Shown: positions 48,348 through 62,827 of the stretch, piece by piece
How the letters are laid out: the number at the start of each line of letters is the position of its first letter
Numbering within the stretch: position 1 is the stretch's first letter
From: a bacterium
Lineage (GTDB): Bacteria > Patescibacteriota > Minisyncoccia > Phycocordibacterales > UBA12079
Reading direction: 5' to 3'
Assembly: GCA_030641525.1 (NCBI GenBank)
Contig: DAOWHH010000016.1
Coordinates: 1,073 to 65,072, forward strand
Length of the DNA: 64,000 bases
Program-made: the position numbers and the translations under genes
The notes under the pieces: model-generated
Database searches by the model: none
Told to the model about the DNA's origin: nothing
The model's input: only the letters and a program-made list of their open reading frames with translations

Positions 48348-48953
48348 TTAAAGATTACTTGAAGTGGAACCAGAAATAAACATATTTAATCCAGTAATAG
48401 CTCCTCCCAAAGCATTTTCCAAATCTTGTACAGAAGATAGATTATTGATATTATTTTCTACATTTCTAGTTTTAGTCGGATTGATATTATTAACTATATC
48501 TTCAAACCATTTATCTAAACCTTGCAAAATTTCATCTGTCATATTACGAACATCAAGTATTAAAACATCATTAAATAGACAACGATGAATTATATTCCCA
48601 TTCAGATCAGGAGAACTAACAAATTTGTAACTCACATATCTTCTACTACTTAAAGTAATTCCTTGATGTAAAATTTTACATCTTATTTCATACCACTCAT
48701 CATCTAATAAAAACGGGCTTGCAACATAATCAGATGCCCACTTTTTATAACGACTTGAATTAGCTAATCCATTTGTTGATTCTAATGCCCCACAGATATC
48801 TGGAAAAATAATAATATAATGTAGTAATGCCCAATAAGCACCAGCTCCTCGCATTAAGGAAATCTGGTCAGTATATACAGAAAATTTTTCTTCAAGTTCT
48901 TCTTTATTCATGGTCTTATTTTTGCTTAATTTTATTAATATATTTTTTATCAA
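48348..48953 (-). CDS. Hypothetical protein, translationally coupled to the upstream helicase (38-bp overlap)
   Basis: 201-aa ORF with no motif. It is the last gene of the AbiH-like/helicase operon. Confidence 0.4.
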   Translation of the reverse strand: MIKNILIKLSKNKTMNKEELEEKFSVYTDQISLMRGAGAYWALLHYIIIFPDICGALESTNGLANSSRYKKWASDYVASPFLLDDEWYEIRCKILHQGITLSSRRYVSYKFVSSPDLNGNIIHRCLFNDVLILDVRNMTDEILQGLDKWFEDIVNNINPTKTRNVENNINNLSSVQDLENALGGAITGLNMFISGSTSSNL

Positions 48954-50544
48954 TAAATTCTAAAATCTTGGGATTTTCATCTTCTAAAGAAATCAATGTT
49001 AGTTTTTCTTTTGCTCTAGTTATACCAACCAAAAATTCGCATATCTTTTGATCAGTAAAATCTGATGTTTCTCGATCTAATATAATTTTATCATTTATAC
49101 CTACATAATAAACAAAATCCATTGAAAGCCCTTTCGAACTCATAACTGTTGTTATCTCTATTTCTGTTGCATCTTTTTTAATTGAGTCAAAACCATTTAT
49201 CATTTTTGAAAGTATATTTTTTAAATTAAAAATCTCACTAAATCTTTTTAACTCTTTGTTATTTAATTTATCTCTACCACTTTTAACTTTTTTAAAAATT
49301 TTAATATCTTCTTCTATATTTTCTTTTATATCTTTTTCTAGACAACTCCAAATTCCTTTTTTTTCTTGATTACTTTGAATTATTATATTTTTCACTTTAT
49401 CCTCAGAAGAAAAATATAGAAACAGAACCTTTCTTAATGATAAATTATCAGTTTTTCTCTCAAAAAGTATCTCAAAAATTTCTACTAAATTTTTGTGCTT
49501 TATTTTATTACATTTTTCTTCTGAAAATAATTCAAAATTAATAACATTAAATCCTTTTTTTATTAAACCTTCATATATTGTTTGTTTTAAATAACTAGGT
49601 ACCAAAACCAAAATCTTTTTTTTAACTCCTTTTTCAATATCTTTTTTTATAGCTTCTGATAATTGATAAATCAACAAGTGGCCTCCACAAGGTACAGAAG
49701 GTATAAAATCAATTTTAGGGTATTTTTCACTAATTTTGTTCTTTTCTTTTATACTATTTGGATATAAAAACTTTTTGTCTAATCGATCTTCTAAATAACC
49801 AGCACCCTTTGAGTTTCTAATTAAATCATTTGTAGTATTAACAATAACTTCCGTGCATCTAAAACAATAATCAAGAGAAAATTCTTCTGTACTAACGTCA
49901 CTATACAAATTTCTTATTTGTTCTGGTTTCGCATTTTTCCAATCATATAGAGATTGATCATCGTCACCAACTAAAACAACTTTATTTTTTTTATTGAGTA
50001 ACTTAATTAATTCATATTCAGATTTATTAAAATCTTGAAATTCGTCTATTAAAATTAAATCGTATTTCGGAATACAAGATTCTTGTTCTGAAAAAATTAA
50101 ATTGATAAGATAAATAATGGAATTAAATGAGTATAATCTTTCTCCATATTTATAAAAAAGAATTCGTTCTTTATAAAAATTTAACTCGTCCTCAGTCAAG
50201 TTATTTTCATGAAATCTTTCTTCATAATTAATATTATCTTTTTTTATAAAAAAATAATCTTCACTTATAACACAATCTAAATTTGAATCAAAATCTACAT
50301 CCCCTATCTTTTTTTTAGCAAAAGCATGTAAAGTCGAAACTTCTACATTTTTAAAATCTTTAAATTCTTGAGATAAATCATCTATCAATTTATTTATAAA
50401 AGAAAGAATTAGTATTTTTTTACCTTTATATTCATCTGATTCTATAATAGTTTTAAAGGTATAACTTTTACCTGTTCCTGGACCAGCTAATCCAACAAAT
50501 AAATTCTTTTCAGATTTTCTTATTTTTTCTAAAATATCAGTCAT
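48916..50544 (-). CDS. Compact UvrD/Rep-type SF1 helicase-like ATPase
   Basis: 542 aa. Walker A LAGPGTGKSYT, motif II ILIDEFQDFN, motif V SSKGLSMDFV, motif VI VGITRAKEKL. Confidence 0.7.
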   Translation of the reverse strand: MTDILEKIRKSEKNLFVGLAGPGTGKSYTFKTIIESDEYKGKKILILSFINKLIDDLSQEFKDFKNVEVSTLHAFAKKKIGDVDFDSNLDCVISEDYFFIKKDNINYEERFHENNLTEDELNFYKERILFYKYGERLYSFNSIIYLINLIFSEQESCIPKYDLILIDEFQDFNKSEYELIKLLNKKNKVVLVGDDDQSLYDWKNAKPEQIRNLYSDVSTEEFSLDYCFRCTEVIVNTTNDLIRNSKGAGYLEDRLDKKFLYPNSIKEKNKISEKYPKIDFIPSVPCGGHLLIYQLSEAIKKDIEKGVKKKILVLVPSYLKQTIYEGLIKKGFNVINFELFSEEKCNKIKHKNLVEIFEILFERKTDNLSLRKVLFLYFSSEDKVKNIIIQSNQEKKGIWSCLEKDIKENIEEDIKIFKKVKSGRDKLNNKELKRFSEIFNLKNILSKMINGFDSIKKDATEIEITTVMSSKGLSMDFVYYVGINDKIILDRETSDFTDQKICEFLVGITRAKEKLTLISLEDENPKILEFIDKKYINKIKQK

Positions 50545-50550
50545 TTTATT

Positions 50551-51402
50551 TCATTTTGTTAGCTTAGAGATATCAATTTTTTCCAAAAAAACTGATTGTA
50601 GAAAGTCAGCCAAATTACTATTGGTTAATTGATCCATTCTATAATCTAGTTCATCCTTAGAATTCTCACCAAAATAATATAAGTCCATATGTAATTTTGA
50701 TATATTTTCGTTTTGACTAAGCCAATTAAATGGGTTTTTAAAGTACATCTCATCAGAAACACCTAATGAATATCCAAATATCGCAATATCGTATCCTTTT
50801 TTTAAATTTTCTGGTAAATCACATCTCTGAAATCCTTCACCTGTTGTCTTTTTAATAAACGTGTGAAATTTAGTTGACTTAGTATCGTCTTGAATTCCAA
50901 ATATTATATTCGACTCAAGATCACCATGAACGTGAATGTGTTTCTCTGCGATATCATTAGAACTCCATCCTTGATTAGCTAAAATATTCTTAACAGTTGA
51001 AGTATAGTTGAAATTATAAATTAAGATGTCAGTAGTTTTGTTGTACTTATCTACCGAGTTATTAGTAATAAAGTTGTATGCTTTTGACTTTTTATTAATT
51101 TTATCATATTTAATACTCTTCAAATATTCTAAAAATTGTTTAGCCAATTCTTTATATTCTTCCTTAAAAGAAGAAAGGATTTTACTACCAAGATTATTGA
51201 TATTGTCTGCGTAATCTTTTAACGCAACTTCTACATCTACCCAATTTTCGAGTTCCGACCGATTTTTTAAATTATTTGCAATTTGATTTCCGTCTTCTAA
51301 GAGTTCATCAAAATATAGACTTTTCAAAAAATGTGAATAAGAGGTTGGTAATCCTAGATTTAAATCAAATCCATTGCCTATGATGATAATTTTCTTTTTC
51401 AT
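50551..51402 (-). CDS. AbiH-like abortive-infection family protein
   Basis: Starts MKKKIIIIGNGFDLNLGLPTSYSHF, the GNGFD N-terminal signature recalled for the AbiH family. The track ORF extends further, from a GTG at 51510, and that extension reads into repeat A1. Ends 6 bp before the helicase start. Confidence 0.55.
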   Translation of the reverse strand: MKKKIIIIGNGFDLNLGLPTSYSHFLKSLYFDELLEDGNQIANNLKNRSELENWVDVEVALKDYADNINNLGSKILSSFKEEYKELAKQFLEYLKSIKYDKINKKSKAYNFITNNSVDKYNKTTDILIYNFNYTSTVKNILANQGWSSNDIAEKHIHVHGDLESNIIFGIQDDTKSTKFHTFIKKTTGEGFQRCDLPENLKKGYDIAIFGYSLGVSDEMYFKNPFNWLSQNENISKLHMDLYYFGENSKDELDYRMDQLTNSNLADFLQSVFLEKIDISKLTK

Positions 51403-51413
51403 TTTTATTTTTT

Positions 51414-51510
51414 TAATGCGGGCAACCTCGTGCTGGAACCGTGGATGGTTAAACTCTGTGAGGTCATTTTTCAATAGATTTATTTTATCAAAATTAAGGT
51501 CTTCGTGCAC
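51414..51510 (-). repeat. Family-A intergenic element, copy 1 (AATGCGGGCAACCTCGTGCTGGAACCGTGG...CGTGCAC)
   Basis: A roughly 95-nt element filling the spacer between the 145-aa gene and the AbiH-like gene. Confidence 0.75.
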
Positions 51511-51516
51511 TTAATT

Positions 51517-51954
51517 TCAATCAAAAAAGAAAGTGATATCAGAACAAATCAAAAAAATAATTATTCCAACAATAATCTTATTTTTGTTATTTTTTATCCA
51601 TCCAATAATATCTATCCAAACCATTCTAAAAAATTGTCTATACGGATTGTTTAAATGCGTTATGTTGATGGTAGTATTTAAATAGAGGGAAAAATTATCT
51701 ACATGAAATTTAAATATATATCCGTTTATAATTTTATTTTTAGGAAGTCTATGCTTATTTATATCTTTATCATCATAATCTGAATCCGAATTGTTTATAA
51801 GTGTATCCAACATTTTATGATATCTGACTAAAAAATACTTATCAACTGATTTTTCCTCAGGAAAAGAAGCGGCCGAACTGAGTAAAGCCTTGATCTCTGA
51901 TTGACATCCCTCCATAACATTTTGTATTTTTATATTATTAATTTTATGATGCAT
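51517..51954 (-). CDS. Hypothetical protein with a C-terminal TM helix
   Basis: 145-aa ORF. Confidence 0.35.
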   Translation of the reverse strand: MHHKINNIKIQNVMEGCQSEIKALLSSAASFPEEKSVDKYFLVRYHKMLDTLINNSDSDYDDKDINKHRLPKNKIINGYIFKFHVDNFSLYLNTTINITHLNNPYRQFFRMVWIDIIGWIKNNKNKIIVGIIIFLICSDITFFFD

Positions 51955-52348
51955 TTGTTTTATTTGGGTGCTTGTCCCACAAATCCCAATAAGATTTCTT
52001 GTCTCTAGGATTACCGGGATCTTTTTTTAAATAAGAATATAAAGTACCTTGTATTTGATGTGCCTGTAGCCAAATCCATCTATCGGTCATGTCTTCAGGA
52101 AATCCAGATTCAAGCAATCTTATTTCTAATCCCTCAATAATTTCAGGTGTTGTTATTTTACATTTTTTTATCCAAAGATATCTTCTTTCTTTGTGTACTC
52201 CATTCACGAAAGAATCCAAAGGACCGAGAACTTTATCCCAAAGTTCTACTGTAATTTTAAGTTGATGGGACGATAGAAACTCTTCTATTTTATTGCAGAA
52301 TCTGTCAATAGTTTCTTTCGATGGTTTTTCTTTATACTTTATTTTCAT
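51944..52348 (-). CDS. Hypothetical protein
   Basis: 134-aa ORF overlapping the next gene by 11 bp. Confidence 0.35.
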   Translation of the reverse strand: MKIKYKEKPSKETIDRFCNKIEEFLSSHQLKITVELWDKVLGPLDSFVNGVHKERRYLWIKKCKITTPEIIEGLEIRLLESGFPEDMTDRWIWLQAHQIQGTLYSYLKKDPGNPRDKKSYWDLWDKHPNKTNAS

Positions 52349-52377
52349 ATATTTAATTATCTTCGTGATAGCTCTAA

Positions 52378-52472
52378 AATGCGGGCAATCTCGAGCTAGA
52401 ACTGTGGGCGGTTAAGTTTGGTAAGGTTGTTTTTAATAAATTCATTCTATCCTTTTGAAGGCCCTCGTGCAC
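52378..52472 (-). repeat. Family-A intergenic element, copy 2
   Basis: AATGCGGGCAATCTCGAGCTAGAACTGTGGGCGGTTAAG...CCCTCGTGCAC, lying between the HNH gene and the 134-aa gene. Confidence 0.75.
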
Positions 52473-52500
52473 TTCTCTTTAATTAAAAATTTTTTGGCGA

Positions 52501-53421: not shown

Positions 53422-53512
53422 GTTTTTATCCTAACGTAATTACTGGTTTTATAATAGTAAGTTACTAACAAACTACTTCGTGCTAGCACGATGTTGCGGA
53501 GAGGACAGGATT

Positions 53513-53590
53513 GGTCACGAATCACTAAGTATATTTCTTCGCTATCGCTCAAAATCTACTAAGTGTTCTCGACCCCGACTCAGCGACAAG
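53513..53590 (+). repeat. Family-B element, copy 3
   Basis: GGTCACGAATCACTAAGTATATTTCTTCGCTATCGCTCAAAATCTACTAAGTGTTCTCGACCCCGACTCAG. Confidence 0.65.
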
Positions 53591-53696
53591 CACTCGCTCC
53601 GCTCGTCTTGTGTACCGCTTCCGTCTTTCGAATCCTGTCTTCTCTTCTGTATGTTTGAAATCAGGAATACCACTCAATGTGGTATTCCTAATTTCA

Positions 53697-53791
53697 AATG
53701 CGGGCAACCTCGTGCTGGAACCGTGGGGTATCAAGCCCTGTAAGGCGGTTTTAAGCTTTTTAGGACTACTAATCGAAGGATCCTCGTGCAC
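53697..53791 (-). repeat. Family-A intergenic element, copy 3
   Basis: AATGCGGGCAACCTCGTGCTGGAACCGTGGGGTATCAAG...TCCTCGTGCAC, preceded by the hairpin CAGGAATACCAC-TCAA-TGTGGTATTCCT at 53661-53690. Confidence 0.75.
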
Positions 53792-53807: not shown

Positions 53808-53847
53808 AGTGACAAAAGTGACACATAATTGATATATAAAATTACAG
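53808..53847. repeat. Family-C 40-nt direct repeat, copy 1 (downstream of the EEP gene)
   Basis: AGTGACAAAAGTGACACATAATTGATATATAAAATTACAG. Confidence 0.7.
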
Positions 53848-53903
53848 TCAATTGTAACTTTTGTGATAAATTATGACTCTAAATTCATTAGTTTCAATAA
53901 CCT

Positions 53904-54881: not shown

Positions 54882-54922
54882 AGTGACAAAAAGTGACACA
54901 TAATCGATATATAAAGTTACAG
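54882..54922. repeat. Family-C direct repeat, copy 2 (upstream of the EEP gene)
   Basis: AGTGACAAAAAGTGACACATAATCGATATATAAAGTTACAG. Confidence 0.7.
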
Positions 54923-55408
54923 CTTCATGTCACTTTTAATTTCGTTATTATCAAGTACCCAACCGTAAACCTCGACTATGCCAATCTTACTTTTATCAAA
55001 GTCTGGCAACACATTTGGTAGCTTTCCTATTGAGATTAATATTCCAAATTTATAAAAATAAGGATCTTTAAAAAAAGTTTCATTAATCTTGTCGAGATCT
55101 TCTTGAAGATCTTTAGTTTTTGGATTTTTCTTTGCTTGAAAAACAACTAAGTTGTCTGAATGATTACTCCTCTTGTGAATAGCAATATCAGGACGTTTTC
55201 TGTCATTCTTTATAAGTTCAACATCAACATTATGTTTAGAAAACATTTCATTAAGTTTACTCTGAAGATGTGAGCATATATTCCACTCTGTTGTTTTCCA
55301 TATCTCGGGCTCAGTATCTGATATTTGTTTACAAGCAAGTGTTGTTTTGTTTAGAATTTCTTGGATTTCCATATTTTTGTTTTGAATTAAATATTTCTTT
55401 TCATCCAA
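54917..55408 (-). CDS. Small PD-(D/E)xK-like protein, paralogue of 21268-21681
   Basis: Shares TEWNI..H ... VDV ... KRPDI.IHKR.NH.DN ... LDKI with the R-M-linked paralogue. Confidence 0.5.
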   Translation of the reverse strand: MDEKKYLIQNKNMEIQEILNKTTLACKQISDTEPEIWKTTEWNICSHLQSKLNEMFSKHNVDVELIKNDRKRPDIAIHKRSNHSDNLVVFQAKKNPKTKDLQEDLDKINETFFKDPYFYKFGILISIGKLPNVLPDFDKSKIGIVEVYGWVLDNNEIKSDMKL

Positions 55409-55668
55409 TCAGTAACCTTTTTATCAACTCCCATAGTTCCCCAATCATCATCTGTAACATTCATTACTAATAATTCATCATTAGAGTCAATAAATTTCTT
55501 GAGATGATCTCTGATTTCAGAAGCTGAACTTTCAGAAACAACAAACCAAGTAGACTCTAGTGGTTTTGCCCATGAACCAAGCTTTTTAATTTGATCAATA
55601 AGACGTTTATATTCTGATGATGTTTCTCCTTTGTTTAAATCGTAAGCGATTAAAAATGTTTGTAACAT
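55387..55668 (-). CDS. Hypothetical small protein with a Cas2/VapD-like sequence pattern (weak)
   Basis: 93 aa. FLIAYDL ... LGSW ... STWFVVSE ... DELLVMNV resembles the Cas2 pattern hhhYDh...G.R.Q.SVF.C...DS.hhY.h. No cas1 and no array nearby. Confidence 0.3.
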   Translation of the reverse strand: MLQTFLIAYDLNKGETSSEYKRLIDQIKKLGSWAKPLESTWFVVSESSASEIRDHLKKFIDSNDELLVMNVTDDDWGTMGVDKKVTDWMKRNI

Positions 55669-55673
55669 AGTTT

Positions 55674-55919
55674 TTAAAATTTAGTATCTTTAGGTGGGCA
55701 TGGATCATTGCCTGGTTTTACTGTGTCACTATCACGAATAGGACCACCGTTTGGTTTATGAATTCTTACTTCACCACCACCAGATTTAGCTGATAATTCT
55801 TTTGCGATTTTTTCGGCTTCTTTTTGGGTGCTAGCTGTAGCAGAAGCACGATTTGCTCCGGCTTTGATAGCTTTCCAAACGCCAGAACCTTTTGGATTTG
55901 TTACATGGTAATTTGCCAT
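55674..55919 (-). CDS. DUF2188 (YjzC-like) family protein
   Basis: MANYHVTNPKGSGVWKAIKAGANRASATASTQKEAEKIAKELSAKSGGGEVRIHKPNGGPIRDSDT matches the DUF2188 consensus. Confidence 0.65.
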   Translation of the reverse strand: MANYHVTNPKGSGVWKAIKAGANRASATASTQKEAEKIAKELSAKSGGGEVRIHKPNGGPIRDSDTVKPGNDPCPPKDTKF

Positions 55920-55925
55920 ATGTTT

Positions 55926-56543
55926 TTAATATAGATCTTCTGGAAGTACTGCAACAACTACCCCTTGGATCATACAATTATCTGTTAATACGATAGGTCT
56001 GTGTTCTTTGTTCTTTGATTTTGGTCGAAGAATAATAGCATCACGAGTCCTCTCAAAAATTTTGACAGTTGCTTCATCATTAATAAGAGCAACTACCTTA
56101 TCTCCATTGTCTGCTGTATTTTGCTGTCTTATAAGAAGCAAGTCGCCATTATTGATTCCATCTGCATCCATTGAATCACCTAACGCTCGGAGAAAAAAAT
56201 ATTTTGATCCCTTTTGAACCATTCTTGTTGAAACAGGAATGTAGGTCTGTATATTTTCTTCTGCAAAGATTGGAGTTCCGCAGGCAACAGAGCCAACGAG
56301 GGGGACATCTACAATACTTACAGAATTTTCTTTATAAGTATTCACGAGTACTAAGTTTCTCCCTTTTTTCTTTATAAGACCAGATGCAATAAGTCGATTA
56401 ATTACAAGACTTGCTGACCTTGGAGATCTTCCACCCGTTACTTCGTTAATTTCACGAAGGGTAGGGCTTTCACCATAATGGATAATCTTGTTGCGGATAA
56501 GGGCAAAAGCTTTTTTGTCTTTGTCACTAAGGTTATTTGTCAT
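55926..56543 (-). CDS. lexA: LexA repressor (S24 peptidase)
   Basis: N-terminal LexA wHTH (LIRNKIIHYGESPTLREINEVTGGRSPRSASLVINRLIASGLIKKKG), cleavage-site region VACG, and catalytic Ser/Lys (GDSM ... K). Start taken at the MTNNLSDK Met; the track ORF begins at 56600. Confidence 0.85.
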   Translation of the reverse strand: MTNNLSDKDKKAFALIRNKIIHYGESPTLREINEVTGGRSPRSASLVINRLIASGLIKKKGRNLVLVNTYKENSVSIVDVPLVGSVACGTPIFAEENIQTYIPVSTRMVQKGSKYFFLRALGDSMDADGINNGDLLLIRQQNTADNGDKVVALINDEATVKIFERTRDAIILRPKSKNKEHRPIVLTDNCMIQGVVVAVLPEDLY

Positions 56544-56616
56544 GGTATAAATAGTATAAATTATTTTATATAATAATGCAAGTATTTTGTTTAAAACCAA
56601 CTCTGTTAAACCACAA

Positions 56617-57618: not shown

Positions 57619-58902
57619 ATGTATAAATTAAAATGGACAACGGAAAAACGTCGGATTAATGATTTGGTGCCTTTCGAGAGAAACCCTAGGTCAATTAGCC
57701 CAAAACAATTAAAAGATTTAACAAAGAGTCTTAAAAAATTCAATCTTGTTGAGATTCCTGCAATTGATATAGACAACAAAATACTTGCAGGACACCAACG
57801 CCTAAAAGTATTGCAATTACTTGGACGAGGTGACGAGGAAATAGATGTACGAATTCCAAACCGTAAACTCACTAAAAAAGAATCGGAACAATACCTTATA
57901 TCAAGCAACGTTCTTGGTGGTGATTGGGATTTTGAAAAACTTAAATCATTTGATCTAGATTTGTTGATTGATATTGGTTTTGACCAAGTCGACCTCTCTC
58001 ATCTTTGGAATGATGAGTTAGAAGTGCAAGACGAAGATTTTGAAGTTGAAAAAGAATTAAAGCAGATTAAGAAACCTAAAACAAAAATAGGTGATCTTAT
58101 TTATCTTGGCCCCCATAAATTAATTTGTGGTGATTCCACTGATCCAAAAAATTTAAAAAGATTATTTGGTAACGAACAAGCTTCAATGATTTATTCTGAT
58201 CCTGTATACAACATCTCAATTGATTACAACAAAGGTATTGGGGGAAAACAGAGTTATGGTGGGACCGTTAATGACAACAAGTCTGAAGTTGATTATAGGG
58301 ATCTCATCAAACAAAGTCTTGAGAACGCACTGTCGGTAGCAAAGAAGGATACACATATTTTCTACTGGTGTGATCAAACATACATTTGGTTAATTCAAGA
58401 ACTATATCGAGAACTTGGGATAACAAACAAAAGAGTGTGTTTATGGATTAAAAACGGACACAACCCTGTTCCGAGTGTGGCATTTAATAAGTGCTACGAA
58501 CCATGTACTTATGGTGTGCGAGGAAAACCATACATTACTAAGAATATTCAAAACCTCAATGAAGTTTTGAATAAAGAGATTACTACAGGTAATAACTTAC
58601 TTGAAGAAACTCTTGATGAACTCGATGTATGGCTTGTTAAACGTCTTTCTCACAAAGACTATGAACATGCAACAAGCAAGCCACCAAAGTTACACGAAAA
58701 GGCAATTCGTAGATGTACAAAACCCGGAGATATTATTCTTGATTCATTTTCAGGATCAGGAAGTACTTTAATTGCAGGAGAGCAATTAAAACGCAAAGTC
58801 TACGCGGTCGAACTAGAACCTATCTTTTGTGATCTTGTGATTAAAAGATATGAAAAATTAACAGGCGTTAATGCAAAAATAGAAAATGTCAAAGAAAAAT
58901 AA
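57619..58902 (+). CDS. ParB-like nuclease domain fused to a DNA (N4/N6) methyltransferase
   Basis: N-terminal ParB/Srx domain (FERNPRSISPKQLKDL ... AGHQRLKV). C-terminal methylase motifs (SDPVYNI; DSFSGSGST). This is a phage-typical architecture. Confidence 0.75.
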   Translation: MYKLKWTTEKRRINDLVPFERNPRSISPKQLKDLTKSLKKFNLVEIPAIDIDNKILAGHQRLKVLQLLGRGDEEIDVRIPNRKLTKKESEQYLISSNVLGGDWDFEKLKSFDLDLLIDIGFDQVDLSHLWNDELEVQDEDFEVEKELKQIKKPKTKIGDLIYLGPHKLICGDSTDPKNLKRLFGNEQASMIYSDPVYNISIDYNKGIGGKQSYGGTVNDNKSEVDYRDLIKQSLENALSVAKKDTHIFYWCDQTYIWLIQELYRELGITNKRVCLWIKNGHNPVPSVAFNKCYEPCTYGVRGKPYITKNIQNLNEVLNKEITTGNNLLEETLDELDVWLVKRLSHKDYEHATSKPPKLHEKAIRRCTKPGDIILDSFSGSGSTLIAGEQLKRKVYAVELEPIFCDLVIKRYEKLTGVNAKIENVKEK

Positions 58903-59290
58903 AGTTAGAGATTCCTTTCTTGATGAATTAAAGAAAATTCCTATTGTTCAAGTTGCCTGTGAAAAAACAAGAGTTTCTCGCAATAGTATTTATAGGTGGA
59001 AAAAGGAAGATAAGGAGTTTTGCAAAGAAATGGAAGAAGCTTTAGCTGAAGGTGAAGCATTAGTTAACGATATGAGTGAAAGTCAATTACTGACACTTAT
59101 TAAAGAGAAAAACTTCTCTGCTATAAGCTTCTGGCTTCGACATAGAAATTCAAAGTTTAAAAACAAAGTTGAAGTTACCACAAAAATAGGAATTGATGAC
59201 GACGATCTTACGCCCGAACAAGAAACTATTGTAAAAAGAGCTTTAGAGCTTGCAACTTCAACTAAACCTAATGAAAAAAATCATGACTGA
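58886..59290 (+). CDS. Terminase small subunit-like HTH protein
   Basis: 134 aa. HTH (VACEKTRVSRNSIYRWKKEDKEF). Overlaps the upstream and downstream genes. Confidence 0.55.
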   Translation: MSKKNKVRDSFLDELKKIPIVQVACEKTRVSRNSIYRWKKEDKEFCKEMEEALAEGEALVNDMSESQLLTLIKEKNFSAISFWLRHRNSKFKNKVEVTTKIGIDDDDLTPEQETIVKRALELATSTKPNEKNHD

Positions 59291-60788
59291 TGAAACGCAA
59301 AAAATTATTGAAATAATGCTAAAGGATATAAAAGTGAGAAGAAGTATTGCGAGAGAAAATCACTTATTATTTTTCAGTGCTTACTTTGGACATTATATGG
59401 AATATGAATTTGCAGATTTTCACCGAGAAATGTTTGATTTAAGCTCTAATGAAAATATTCAAACACTTGTAATCACCGCGGCTCGAGGAATTGGTAAATC
59501 AACTATTCTTAATATGAGTTTAGCTATTTGGTCGATACTTGGAAGACGAAGAAAAAAGTTTGTTATTATCCTCAGTCATACTCAAGCAAAAGCACGACAA
59601 CATTTCAATAACTTAAGAAAAGAGTTTGAAGAAAATAAATTACTTCAAAGTGATTTAGGACCTTTCAAAGAAGACAGTGGTGAATGGGGATCATCTTTGG
59701 TCCTTCCTCATTACGATGCTCGTATAACTTTTGCTTCAACCGAGCAAAGTATCCGTGGGATGCGTCACAAACAACATAGACCTGATTTGATTATTGCAGA
59801 CGACTTAGACGATAATGATTCGATAAAGACATTGGACGGAAGAAATAAAACATATGACTGGCTAACGAAAGATATTATTCCTGCAGGAGAAACAAATACA
59901 AAGTTGGTTATAGTTGGAACACTTCTTCATGAAGATTCAATCATGATGAGACTAAAGAAAGAAATATTAGAAGGAAAAAGAACTGGTGAGTATAGAGAAT
60001 ATCCACTTGTCGATGATAATGGATTAATACTTTGGAAAAGTAAGTACCCAAATAAATTAGCTTTGGAAGCAGAGAGGTTAAGAATTGGTAATGAAAAGTC
60101 TTGGTGCCAAGAATATCTTTTAAAGATTGTTTCTGATGCTGATAGGGTTATCCACCCAGAATGGATTCGATATCATGAAGAAATTCCTAGTAGGACACCA
60201 GAAAATAGTTATCGCTATACTTTTACAGCAATTGACTTAGCAATTTCAGAAAGAGAACGGGCTGATTGTACTGCTATGGTTTCAGCTAGTGTGTATGGTT
60301 ATGGTGAAAATATGAGAATATATATTTTGCCAAATCCAATTAATGAGCGTTTGGATTTTCCAAGTGCAATAGAAAAAGCTAAATTACTTTCATTAAGTCT
60401 TTCTCATAATGGAAAGAAAACAAGACTTGTTATTGAGGATAATATGTATCAAAGGGCTTTTCCACAAATGCTACAAAAAGATAGATACCCTGCAGAGGGA
60501 GTCCAGTCTGTCGGAGATAAGCGAACTCGCTTAACACTCATAAACCCAACAGTGAAAGCGGGGCAAGTATTATTTCCAAAAGAAGGAACTGAAACTTTGA
60601 TTCAACAACTTATTGGTTTTGGAGTAGAGCGATACGATGACTTAGCTGATGCTTTTGCAATTCTTGTTGGAGAAGTTATGAAAAATAACCCCAACAGATC
60701 ATTTAGTGAAAGTGCTCAAAAAATGATAGAGATAAATGGGTGGGATAAAGAAGATGGAGAGATTCCGATTCTTTATAAGCAATATTAA
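59250..60788 (+). CDS. Terminase large subunit
   Basis: 512 aa. ATPase Walker A-like LVITAARGIGKST and Walker B DLIIADDLDD. C-terminal RNase-H-like nuclease (TAIDLAISERERADCTAM). Confidence 0.8.
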   Translation: MQLQLNLMKKIMTDETQKIIEIMLKDIKVRRSIARENHLLFFSAYFGHYMEYEFADFHREMFDLSSNENIQTLVITAARGIGKSTILNMSLAIWSILGRRRKKFVIILSHTQAKARQHFNNLRKEFEENKLLQSDLGPFKEDSGEWGSSLVLPHYDARITFASTEQSIRGMRHKQHRPDLIIADDLDDNDSIKTLDGRNKTYDWLTKDIIPAGETNTKLVIVGTLLHEDSIMMRLKKEILEGKRTGEYREYPLVDDNGLILWKSKYPNKLALEAERLRIGNEKSWCQEYLLKIVSDADRVIHPEWIRYHEEIPSRTPENSYRYTFTAIDLAISERERADCTAMVSASVYGYGENMRIYILPNPINERLDFPSAIEKAKLLSLSLSHNGKKTRLVIEDNMYQRAFPQMLQKDRYPAEGVQSVGDKRTRLTLINPTVKAGQVLFPKEGTETLIQQLIGFGVERYDDLADAFAILVGEVMKNNPNRSFSESAQKMIEINGWDKEDGEIPILYKQY

Positions 60789-61155: not shown

Positions 61156-61304
61156 CTTTAGCGGATTTAAAAACGGTGGAAGTCTTTAGAATTACAAAAG
61201 ACTCCTCGCCATCGCGAATGAACCGAAGCTCATCCCATATGGGTTTCCCCACATGACCGCTAAAGTGACTCTGGACGAGGAGTCTTTTATACTTTAGCGG
61301 ATTT
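61156..61304. repeat. Structured element bounded by 13-bp direct repeats CTTTAGCGGATTT, with a 13-bp long-range inverted repeat
   Basis: AAAAGACTCCTCG (61196-61208) pairs with CGAGGAGTCTTTT (61276-61288), enclosing the hairpin CCCATATGGG. Followed by a (TA)6 tract before the recombinase gene. Confidence 0.6.
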
Positions 61305-61507
61305 TTCAACCATGCCTTATAAAAATTTTATAAGGGTTAGGTCTACTACTAATATTCAATTGTTAATTAACATAATACCGTATCTTTACAGTATTATCCA
61401 TACACCTTATCGCAAATCCTTTGTTTTGCTAAGGGAAGTTGCCAACAAGTTGTCGACGCCACATCGCTTAGCAAGAGACTCTTTCTCTGTCATTAATATA
61501 TATATAT

Positions 61508-62827
61508 ATGGAAACGAATACATTTTCACAACAAACCAAGTCGGCAGTAATTCCAGACATTAAGATGAAGTATTGCCTATATGCTCGAAAAAGTACTGAA
61601 TCAGACGAACGACAAGCCCTGTCTATTGATTCTCAAGTCAAAGAGATGTTACAGATAGCAGAAAGAGAGGGTCTCGAGATTATAGATATTAGAAGAGAAT
61701 CAAAATCAGCTAAAGACTCGAATAATAGACCTGTATTTAAAGAATTACTTCGTGATATATCGGAAGGACGATTTAACGCTATCCTCACATGGGCACCTGA
61801 TAGATTATCAAGAAATGCAGGTGATCTTGGTTCTGTTGTTGATTTAATGGATGCAAAAAAACTTATAGGTATTCGTACTTATGGGCAAACTTTTTCTAAT
61901 TCTCCAAACGAAAAATTTCTCTTGATGATTCTTTGTTCTCAGGCAAAACTAGAAAATGATAATAGAGGTATAAATGTAAAAAGAGGATTACGAACAAGAT
62001 GTGAAATGGGATTATGGCCGACCTGTCCACCCACTGGGTATTTTAAAGAAAAAAGAATGGATCGAAAATGTGAATGTCTTATTGATGAAGAAAGAGCCCC
62101 TGTTATAAAACAAATATTTGAGAAAGTGGCTTATGAGAAATGGTCTGGAAGAAAAATTTATCACTGGCTTAGGTTTGATTTGAATTTTAGAACAGAAGCT
62201 GGAAAGAAACATTTTAGTCTAGGTAATATTTATCGGATGTTAGAGAATCCATTTTATTATGGAACTTTTGAATATCCCAGAGGATCAGGCAATTGGTACA
62301 AAGGAAAACACGAGCCAATAATCACCAAAGAACTTTTTGATTTAGTACAAGGTCAAGTAAAGAATTCTCAACTTGTTAGAAAAGAAAATATTGAATTTGC
62401 CTTTACCAAAATTATGAAATGCGGACTTTGTGGATCTGGAATTTCAGCAACTGAAAAATTCAAAAAATTAAAAAGTGGAGATTTTAATCGACATGTTTAC
62501 TATGGTTGTACAAAAGCGAAAGATAAATATTGTAAATGTGGGTTTATAAACGAAAACAATCTTATTCAACAGCTACAGAACTTGGTTGATGAGATACAGA
62601 TGGACGAAACAGGCGTTCTTAAGAAAATAAAAGCGGAGGTGGCTCGCTATAAAAAATTCCAAGCAACCCTATTGGGGAATGAGATGGATACCGTGGTGTC
62701 TGACGTAGATACTAGGGATTATGTGAAATTCCTGATTAAGAACGGCACTCTTGAAGAGAAGCGAGAGATTATGTTGTGCTTCACGTCTAGTATTAGCTTA
62801 AAAAATGGAAAAATTGGCTTAAAATAA
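61508..62827 (+). CDS. Large serine recombinase (integrase/resolvase family)
   Basis: N-terminal resolvase catalytic domain (YARKSTESDERQALSIDSQ ... LTWAPDRLSRN). Recombinase domain and zinc ribbon (CGLCGS ... YYGCTKAKDKYC). Probable start at MKYCLYARKST. Confidence 0.85.
   Translation: METNTFSQQTKSAVIPDIKMKYCLYARKSTESDERQALSIDSQVKEMLQIAEREGLEIIDIRRESKSAKDSNNRPVFKELLRDISEGRFNAILTWAPDRLSRNAGDLGSVVDLMDAKKLIGIRTYGQTFSNSPNEKFLLMILCSQAKLENDNRGINVKRGLRTRCEMGLWPTCPPTGYFKEKRMDRKCECLIDEERAPVIKQIFEKVAYEKWSGRKIYHWLRFDLNFRTEAGKKHFSLGNIYRMLENPFYYGTFEYPRGSGNWYKGKHEPIITKELFDLVQGQVKNSQLVRKENIEFAFTKIMKCGLCGSGISATEKFKKLKSGDFNRHVYYGCTKAKDKYCKCGFINENNLIQQLQNLVDEIQMDETGVLKKIKAEVARYKKFQATLLGNEMDTVVSDVDTRDYVKFLIKNGTLEEKREIMLCFTSSISLKNGKIGLK

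Follow-up and report, generated by a model that had tools for sequence, protein, structure and literature searches.

AbiH is treated in the literature as a single-gene, SIR2-like system (PMC13064643; PMC13639185), and the recurrent partner reported for it is DS-37, a PD-(D/E)XK/NERD protein (PMC13639185). In SIR2-HerA (Nezha), the SIR2 effector depends on an ATPase/helicase partner (PMC11559045). Because of this dependence, a pairing of AbiH with a helicase is biologically plausible. Such a pairing had been proposed in a first-pass annotation of the window, by which we mean the whole stretch of 64,000 nucleotides analysed here. Three tightly packed genes at 48348-51510 had been described as a candidate helicase-coupled AbiH system acting as a unit, and three co-directional minus-strand open reading frames were indeed present at this place (Table 1).

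Table 1. Positions of the three genes and of the surrounding features in the window.
Feature	Position	Strand	Description
Small third gene, 187 aa	48348..48911	-	mostly alpha-helical protein; large uncharacterised family with near-invariant R77-x4-H82
Helicase gene, 542 aa	48916..50544	-	compact SF1A UvrD-like helicase; Pfam UvrD-helicase, AAA_19, UvrD_C
AbiH-family gene, 283 aa	50551..51402	-	SIR2-like fold; putative NAD+-consuming effector
Leader copy 1	51406..51512	-	directly upstream of AbiH start; non-coding; nhmmer 96 bits
Leader copy 2	52364..52474	-	upstream of a 134-aa/145-aa gene pair
tRNA-Ser 3'-end remnant	53476..53645	-	candidate att-like site within a ~150-nt strongly structured region
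Leader copy 3	53683..53791	-	long intergenic region upstream of an HNH gene
Large serine recombinase gene	61508..62827	+	tblastn 55% identity over 440 aa, E 1e-153, to a protein of locus L167

The layout of the three genes was compact. The AbiH-family stop was separated from the helicase start by 6 nt, a single leader element lay upstream of all three genes, and no terminator-like site was found between them in a consensus scan. The third gene had been described as a 201-aa gene overlapping the helicase by 38 bp. The tight packing held, but the overlap required a doubtful TTG start. From ATG 48911, 4 nt past the helicase stop, the gene encoded 187 aa, and since this length matched the database entry and all 25 homologues, the overlap is probably absent. 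The two short spacers, the one leader and the lack of a terminator-like site between the genes make co-expression of the three genes almost certain; they are probably co-transcribed by accident. For gene 1, the GenBank call (P0001) was a longer frame of 319 aa from GTG 51510, whose first 36 codons contained a non-coding element repeated upstream of two other genes. We assigned the 283-aa frame because the homologues began at ATG 51402, where MKKKIIIIGNGFD was encoded. The GC3 values were 0.236 for the AbiH-family gene, 0.123 for the helicase gene and 0.149 for the small-protein gene.

The repeated leader (family A) noted before the operon proved to be real, with three copies of ~110 nt. The 19-nt core common to the copies occurred three times, compared with zero occurrences expected by chance. 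Copy 1 contained two CACGARG motifs and was supported by alignment and motif enrichment. A homologous element also followed the AbiH homologue in locus L164 and, weakly, that in locus L339. The core pattern was not found in viral contigs, nor in 170 related loci. A known RNA was rejected for this element, which gave no credible Rfam match and a weak consensus fold (−3.3 kcal/mol).

A census was carried out on 324 listed related loci, taken from searches that each contributed up to 80 loci and comprising 154 with a UvrD-like match (82 of this helicase family), 84 with AbiH and 86 with the third family. Many of the contigs were short metagenome pieces, and long flanks were available in few close AbiH relatives (at least 50% identity); adequate flanks on the four relevant sides were present in 72, 68, 74 and 27 loci. 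Among all the listed loci, more than one of the three families occurred together only in the window. An AbiH-like gene was found upstream of the helicase in none of the 72 listed helicase-family loci with enough upstream DNA, and a third gene downstream in none of the 68 with enough downstream DNA. In the case of AbiH, none of the 74 listed loci with at least 1.7 kb downstream had such a helicase nearby, and neither partner was near the third-family gene in any of the 86 listed loci. Conservation of the trio as a unit was thus contradicted, with no other case among the 324 loci, an outcome that the first-pass annotation had itself named as speaking against its proposal. A helicase-coupled system acting as a unit was not supported either, as the genes did not co-occur and their nearest homologues lay in three different contexts. 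Since the listed related loci never showed the trio together, chance juxtaposition in a variable island is most likely, rather than a new three-gene defence system. The comparative evidence argues against the trio as a true unit.

The proposed gene identities held. Gene 1 belonged to the AbiH family with its GNGFD N-terminus, as had been recognised. In the HMM search, 50551-51402 gave a significant match to Pfam PF14253 (88.3 bits versus a threshold of 30.9), which spanned profile positions 1-251 of 260, and all 104 homologues found carried this domain. The PADLOC search with the gene 1 protein returned no family at E<=0.01, AbiH model included. The product adopted a SIR2-like fold, in which the glycine-rich loop at the N-terminus and the conserved Asn and His were present, and its best structural match was the SIR2 subunit of SIR2-HerA. 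The nearest homologues (50-80% identity) were stand-alone genes. The 80%-identical homologue (locus L164) was located directly after a tRNA-Ser, without a helicase. The 60%-identical one had 54-nt direct repeats on both sides, 1219 bp apart. A dehydrogenase gene followed the 52%-identical homologue, and unrelated genes on the opposite strand came after the 50%-identical one. AbiH relatives were often located on mobile DNA or phages; when a plasmid collection was searched by tblastn with a typical AbiH, the single match offered no useful context. The stand-alone relatives are consistent with single-gene abortive infection conferred by gene 1. To our knowledge, AbiH is a 30-year-old gene without a known mechanism.

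Gene 2 had been described as a compact UvrD-like helicase of 542 aa, and the three Pfam domains agreed with this. Walker A (AGPGTGKS), motif II (DEFQD), motif III (VGDDDQS), motif V (SKG) and the motif VI arginine (R510) were invariant in 36 family members. As for the suggested resemblance to GajB, GajB models were the best PADLOC matches. The top model gave 100 bits with a best stretch of only residues 160-247, and the other GajB models covered the full length at 76-81 bits. More than 100 homologues were found at 50-74% identity, mostly in CPR bacteria. The closest (69-71% identity) showed the order hsdM-helicase-hsdS-(Fic or 236-aa protein) in six of six loci, and hsdR was visible in the three contigs long enough to show it. 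In these loci the helicase started 2 nt past hsdM in three of six cases and overlapped hsdS by 4 nt in five of six. Other family neighbours were PD-(D/E)XK/Cas4-like, RloB-like, SLATT, Fic and HEPN/MNT genes, and neighbours were nearly always defence genes. In the window, HsdM, HsdS and HsdR gave no tblastn match, although the helicase was 69-74% identical to hsd-embedded members. The family was rare in viral contigs, where the best identity was 27%.

In the case of the third protein, R77 and H82 were each at least 90% conserved among 83 diverse members, and the family thus carried an R-x4-6-H motif. It comprised more than 2000 clusters without a covering Pfam or NCBIfam model. The nearest homologues (64-65% identity) had no UvrD-like helicase upstream, and several converged on a serine recombinase; the wider family had no conserved neighbour. 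It matched one PHROG and, in BFVD, only two uncharacterised phage proteins. No HEPN similarity was found with Pfam at E<=5 on 26 members or in a profile search against the PDB. In hhalign, comparison with two small toxin-antitoxin-type neighbours of locus L052 (presumed HEPN and HepT) was negative or uninformative, and DinB-like bundles matched the protein as well as HEPN folds did. The model contained an inserted beta-hairpin region and placed the R-x4-H motif at the C-terminal end of a helix. The protein may tentatively be regarded as a HEPN-like RNase. A 187-aa gene downstream of the helicase in locus L007 was considered as the same protein and rejected, as it was not related.

In line with the island noted in the first-pass annotation, the trio lay in a variable neighbourhood that contained defence-type genes. 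The island had also been called nuclease-rich. SNase, two EEP-family, HNH and NYN genes were present, but SNase and one EEP protein had hydrophobic N-terminal signal or anchor-like segments (judged from the translations alone), and this EEP protein weakly matched the MnuA membrane-nuclease family. The proposed GC shift was weak: the helicase had 22.8% GC versus a window mean of 30.4%, but similar lows occurred elsewhere in the window. The region of the tRNA-Ser remnant contained inverted repeats, had a fold energy of −91.8 kcal/mol (z −8.5) and was followed by the imperfect palindrome ACATCGTGCTAGCACGAAGT. ARAGORN and Rfam gave no match there. The 3' arm of the remnant and its flank matched the 3' end of the L164 tRNA-Ser(tga), after which the 80%-identical AbiH homologue directly followed, and the remnant is a candidate mark of a tRNA-linked island. 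The repeats that parted the gene blocks of the island had motifs in common with the flank of a tRNA-Ser 3' end. The L167 relative of the serine recombinase, a Resolvase/Recombinase/Zn_ribbon_recom protein, converged on a 65%-identical third-gene homologue. The window recombinase is possibly the mobility gene of an element carrying the third gene.

Taken together, the three genes are probably independently distributed and independently mobile and became neighbours in a variable island, each being expected to act alone. The setting would be an island of variable content in a Candidatus Pacebacteria genome, linked to a tRNA and associated with a recombinase, and a shared transcript would probably reflect only genome compactness. 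Beyond the gene identities, the fold of gene 1 and the absence of co-occurrence, which the analysis showed, we infer biochemical activities and triggers. The AbiH-family protein, an enzyme of SIR2 fold, most likely destroys NAD+ once triggered by phage, leading to abortive infection, by analogy with ThsA, DSR and SIR2-HerA. The helicase would be a GajB/UvrD-like SF1 motor of a family repeatedly lodged in other defence operons, chiefly hsdM/hsdS, and probably uses ATP hydrolysis in sensing or acting on DNA ends or damaged DNA. The third protein is one of a widespread family of single-domain proteins with an R-x4-H dyad, and its nearest relatives lie at the edge of serine-recombinase elements. 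The co-expressed genes might conceivably cooperate in this genome. One such arrangement would make the helicase a promiscuous plug-in partner of any operon-mate defence gene, with the AbiH pair functional though not conserved; the helicase could, for example, license its neighbour on detecting DNA ends or intermediates of phage replication. This would fit its tight spacing or overlap with neighbours that are not homologous from one operon to another (hsdM/hsdS; AbiH) and its defence-gene company, and SIR2-HerA is a precedent for ATPase-dependent SIR2 activity. However, no second AbiH-helicase case was present among the 156 relevant loci listed, the GC3 of the two genes differed, and genes lodged as guests in restriction-modification operons, the Fic genes of the hsdM-helicase-hsdS loci among them, are as a rule autonomous. 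We consider this arrangement unlikely.

It is rather more improbable that the helicase and the small protein serve not defence but the maintenance or replication of an integrated serine-recombinase element or prophage at ~48.3-62.9 kb, with AbiH as the only defence cargo. The 55% identity of the window recombinase to the one beside a third-gene homologue pointed in this direction. The third gene and the recombinase faced outward at opposite ends, as if an L167-type circle had integrated, with terminase-like genes, a methylase and an S24 repressor between them, and the PHROG and phage matches of the third family agreed with this. However, no matching att sequences were found at the proposed ends, and a helicase family that is rare in viral contigs has its usual home in restriction-modification operons. 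A lineage-restricted system of an AbiH/SIR2 effector, a helicase sensor and a small protein as adaptor or second effector is very unlikely. The short spacers, the common leader and the mobile or defence contexts of all three families would suit it, but the trio and every pair were seen in one genome only among the loci listed, and the usual context differed gene by gene. We give equally little weight to the idea that, in this Pacebacteria lineage, the SIR2-fold AbiH recruited the UvrD-like helicase, alone or together with the R-x4-H protein, for sensing nucleic acid. The result would be a new SIR2-SF1-helicase defence system resembling SIR2-HerA, with a single genome as its one case so far. 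A genuine three-gene unit would extend the NAD-depletion defence systems by an architecture of SIR2 plus SF1 helicase, and AbiH would be able to work with a partner.

These results suggested that tight packing in small CPR genomes should not be read as a sign of a functional module. Possibly of greater worth than the claim of a three-gene system are three by-products. They are a CPR UvrD-like helicase family whose members are habitually inserted at the hsdM-hsdS junction of type I restriction-modification operons, the uncovered family of small R-x4-H proteins, and an island of repeat-separated gene blocks with motifs common to the tRNA-Ser 3'-end flank.

Compared with AbiH of Lactococcus lactis (PF14253; a single-gene system in DefenseFinder), gene 1 was alike in the GNGFD N-terminus and the SIR2-like fold (PMC13064643). 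However, it was shorter than the more distant homologues (283 aa versus ~340-360 aa), and in the alignment it shared 22-30% identity with these typical members. The reported partner DS-37 is not a helicase, unlike the neighbour of gene 1; a helicase assignment for DS-37 was rejected on the DefensePredictor supplement (SC24, 463 aa, weak NERD PD-(D/E)XK match with an HHpred probability of 0.47). In the case of Gabija, which consists of the OLD-family nuclease GajA and GajB, the helicase was also a compact SF1A protein (542 aa versus ~495 aa for GajB). Its profile was nearer to Rep, UvrD and PcrA in the PDB (E ~1e-22; Rep 3e-22) than to solved GajB (E 1.4e-7), and about one of 80 listed helicase-family loci was Gabija-like (AAA_15/AAA_21 with RloB). 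A Gabija variant was rejected, as there was no GajA, and AAA_15, AAA_21 and TOPRIM were absent from ten flanking proteins. The third protein had no HMM or profile similarity to HEPN RNases (HepT, AbiV, RnlA, Csm6) and differed by its beta-hairpin region. As in SIR2-HerA, a SIR2-fold NADase-type gene adjoined the gene of a nucleic-acid motor ATPase. However, the partner there is a hexameric HerA/FtsK ATPase, whereas here it was a monomer-type SF1 UvrD-like helicase and the pairing was not conserved. A variant of SIR2-HerA was rejected because HerA was absent and the Pfam domains of the neighbour are marks of SF1 helicases. Finally, compared with the guest genes of type I restriction-modification systems (PrrC, Fic), the window helicase stood outside such an operon, without hsd genes, whereas its nearest relatives sat between hsdM and hsdS, alongside Fic.

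Profiles were built for all three families of the trio, AbiH (gene 1), the helicase (gene 2) and the small protein (gene 3), and were run against every fetched locus. The helicase family was sampled in 80 loci, one genome per species, plus viral contigs; the gene 3 family in 80 metagenome loci and one viral locus; and the AbiH family in 80 viral-contig loci plus individual look-ups. A UvrD-like match was found in 154 loci (82 of this helicase family), AbiH in 84 and the gene 3 family in 86. Flanks were long enough in most cases, reaching at least 900 bp upstream in 72 helicase-family loci and at least 600 bp downstream in 68, at least 1.7 kb downstream of AbiH in 74 and at least 1.7 kb upstream of gene 3-family members in 27. 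Except for the window, none of these loci held more than one of the three genes. The first-pass annotation had proposed the trio as a new phage-defence module. It named a lack of conservation of the three genes as a unit as grounds for refutation. This was the outcome here, since no other searched locus paired any of them, and the three-gene module was not supported. The most economical reading is that three independently distributed genes became adjacent by chance in a compact genome.

The three genes were co-directional and tightly packed as described, with spacers of 6 nt (genes 1-2) and 4 nt (genes 2-3) on the minus strand, once the starts were corrected. They are probably co-transcribed. 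The window is part of a Candidatus Pacebacteria MAG, and the database entries identical to the three products are KAR54_00820, one named 'ATP-dependent helicase', and KAR54_00830. KAR54_00820 is 319 aa long in GenBank, with a GTG start at 51510 (50551-51510). This start is probably wrong, as the repeated non-coding leader makes up the first 36 codons of that reading. The ATG at 51402 (MKKKIIIIGNGFD) is the probable start, and AbiH homologues begin at the equivalent position. For gene 3, the ATG at 48911 was the most likely start, giving 187 aa, the length of the database entry and of 25/25 homologues. The 38-bp overlap once noted between helicase and gene 3 came from choosing the longest ORF with a TTG start. 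GC3 was 0.236 for AbiH, 0.123 for the helicase and 0.149 for gene 3, with the fall at the AbiH/helicase boundary. It was 0.19-0.26 in the genes upstream of AbiH; beyond gene 3 it was 0.15-0.19 in the TM85, Xth and NYN genes and 0.277 in the intervening SNase gene.

Positions of features in the window
Feature	Position	Strand	Remarks
Gene 3, small protein	48348-48911	-	
Gene 2, helicase	48916-50544	-	
Gene 1, AbiH	50551-51402	-	
Leader copies	51406-51512, 52364-52474, 53683-53791	-	~110 nt, 74-79% identity
Two overlapping small genes	51517-52348	-	134 aa, 145 aa
Region with tRNA-Ser remnant	53470-53700	-	upstream of HNH gene
Hairpin	53654-53698		20 bp, 95% complementary
49-nt repeat	53814-53862, 54889-54937		84% identity
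Cas2-like and DUF2188 proteins	55387-55919	-	
S24/LexA-type repressor	55926-56600	-	
N6/N4 DNA methylase, small-terminase-like HTH protein, weakly terminase-large-like ATPase	57619-60788	+	
LOOT RNA	61216-61343	-	Rfam RF03000, 82 bits
Serine recombinase	61508-62827		

The repeated leader before the trio proved real. Its three copies were intergenic, one ahead of the HNH gene, one ahead of the 134-aa/145-aa pair and one ahead of the trio, so that each marked a gene block. It had a conserved GC-rich 3' block (CCACGGTTCCAGCACGAGGTTGCCCGCATT). The window has 13 CACGARG matches, 7 of them within the three leader-containing intergenic regions. Its predicted fold was weak, and a comparison with Rfam gave no match to a known RNA. 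The 145-aa protein of the pair had a hydrophobic C-terminal segment resembling a transmembrane helix and two PADLOC matches, PD-Lambda-2_A at E 4e-4 and, at E 4e-3, a SLATT model of the RT-associated type; these gave no family assignment. The 49-nt repeat lay upstream of the EEP nuclease gene in one copy and of leader copy 3 in the other. Within it, an inverted repeat (AAAAGTGACA...TGTCACTTTT) frames a promoter-like core rich in AT; the 49-nt repeat is a candidate shared operator. The Cas2-like 93-aa protein (Pfam CRISPR_Cas2 24.5 bits, phrog_1090) adjoined the DUF2188 protein, and among the neighbouring genes scanned neither a CRISPR array nor a further cas gene was seen.

The relatives of AbiH occurred in other settings. 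The 80%-identical homologue (locus L164) came immediately after tRNA-Ser(tga); a leader-like element was next, then an unrelated gene. The 60% homologue (L339) lay between 54-nt direct repeats (81-134 and 1300-1353; 96% identity) 1219 bp apart, which open with a tRNA/tmRNA-like 3' end, an arrangement that resembles an integrated cassette with a single gene. Homologous leader elements followed AbiH in L164 and, weakly, in L339; the 52% and 50% homologues had unrelated neighbours. Upstream of the window HNH gene, a tRNA-Ser 3'-end remnant was found within a strongly structured ~150-nt region (-91.8 kcal/mol, z -8.5). This region was closed by a 14-bp stem whose 3' arm is the tRNA-Ser 3' end (cf. 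L164 331-418). An imperfect palindrome (CGTGCTAGCACG / ACATCGTGCTAGCACGAAGT) came after the remnant, and the hairpin lay in the same intergenic region. ARAGORN called no tRNA and Rfam had no match here; a tRNA remnant, an att site or an uncharacterised RNA are possible readings of the region. The GCAACAT...CACGARG arrangement of the window recurred after the intact tRNA in L164, and also between the 65% gene 3 homologue and its recombinase (L167).

Gene 3 belonged to a family of single-domain proteins, ~160-200 aa long (P0251-P0397), that formed at least 2048 clusters at 50% identity. P37 and W58 were invariant in it and C40, R77, H82 and H109 nearly so. No Pfam or NCBIfam model covered its members, which included phage proteins (phrog_18591, Arthrobacter phage Nandita). 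None of the 64-65% homologues had a UvrD-like helicase upstream; several, the 65% one included, converged on a large serine recombinase (L167-L170, L084). Across the wider family no conserved neighbour was found, and housekeeping and mobile genes were mixed. The window recombinase was 55% identical to the L167 enzyme and 12.6 kb from gene 3, and the LOOT RNA lay just upstream of its gene. Facing outward, gene 3 and the recombinase would fit the ends of a hypothetical ~14.5-kb integrated element, a proposal kept as such because no matching att sequences were found at those ends. The repressor facing the methylase and terminase-like genes (55.9-60.8 kb) was lysogeny-switch-like and suggested a prophage or satellite beside the island.

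The gene identities originally assigned were supported. Gene 2 was an SF1A UvrD-like helicase with every ATPase and helicase motif invariant. GajB models were its best PADLOC matches (at most 100 bits). Profile comparison placed it nearest to Rep, UvrD and PcrA (E ~1e-22), ahead of solved GajB at E 1e-7. Six loci with 69-71%-identical helicases had the order hsdM-helicase-hsdS-(Fic or 236-aa protein), and hsdR was seen in the three contigs reaching that far. The helicase started 2 nt past hsdM in three of the six; in five, helicase and hsdS shared a 4-nt overlap. A similar arrangement was found in L007, L014, L008 and L011, and Fic often preceded hsdR in these CPR genomes (L332-L337, L007, L014, L008, L011). 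Insertion between hsdM and hsdS in CPR is a recurrent association that may merit separate study; the window held no hsd genes. Other family members neighboured PD-(D/E)XK/Cas4-like, RloB-like, SLATT, Fic and HEPN/MNT genes.

In the reading as independent genes, AbiH, with its SIR2-type fold, would be a stand-alone NAD+-consuming abortive-infection effector. The helicase, habitually carried inside other defence operons, would be an autonomous GajB/UvrD-like ATP-dependent DNA motor. The small protein might tentatively be a HEPN-like nuclease or a mobile-element accessory gene. That the helicase is a plug-in cooperating with whichever gene adjoins it is unlikely. SIR2 activity can rely on an ATPase partner in SIR2-HerA (PMC11559045); however, nothing in this analysis pointed to SIR2 dependence on a UvrD-like partner. 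A true three-gene defence system, with the close packing on its side and the separate distribution of the families against it, is less probable still. The recurrent AbiH partner in the literature is DS-37 (PMC13639185), which has a weak PD-(D/E)XK/NERD match in the DefensePredictor supplement and is not a helicase.
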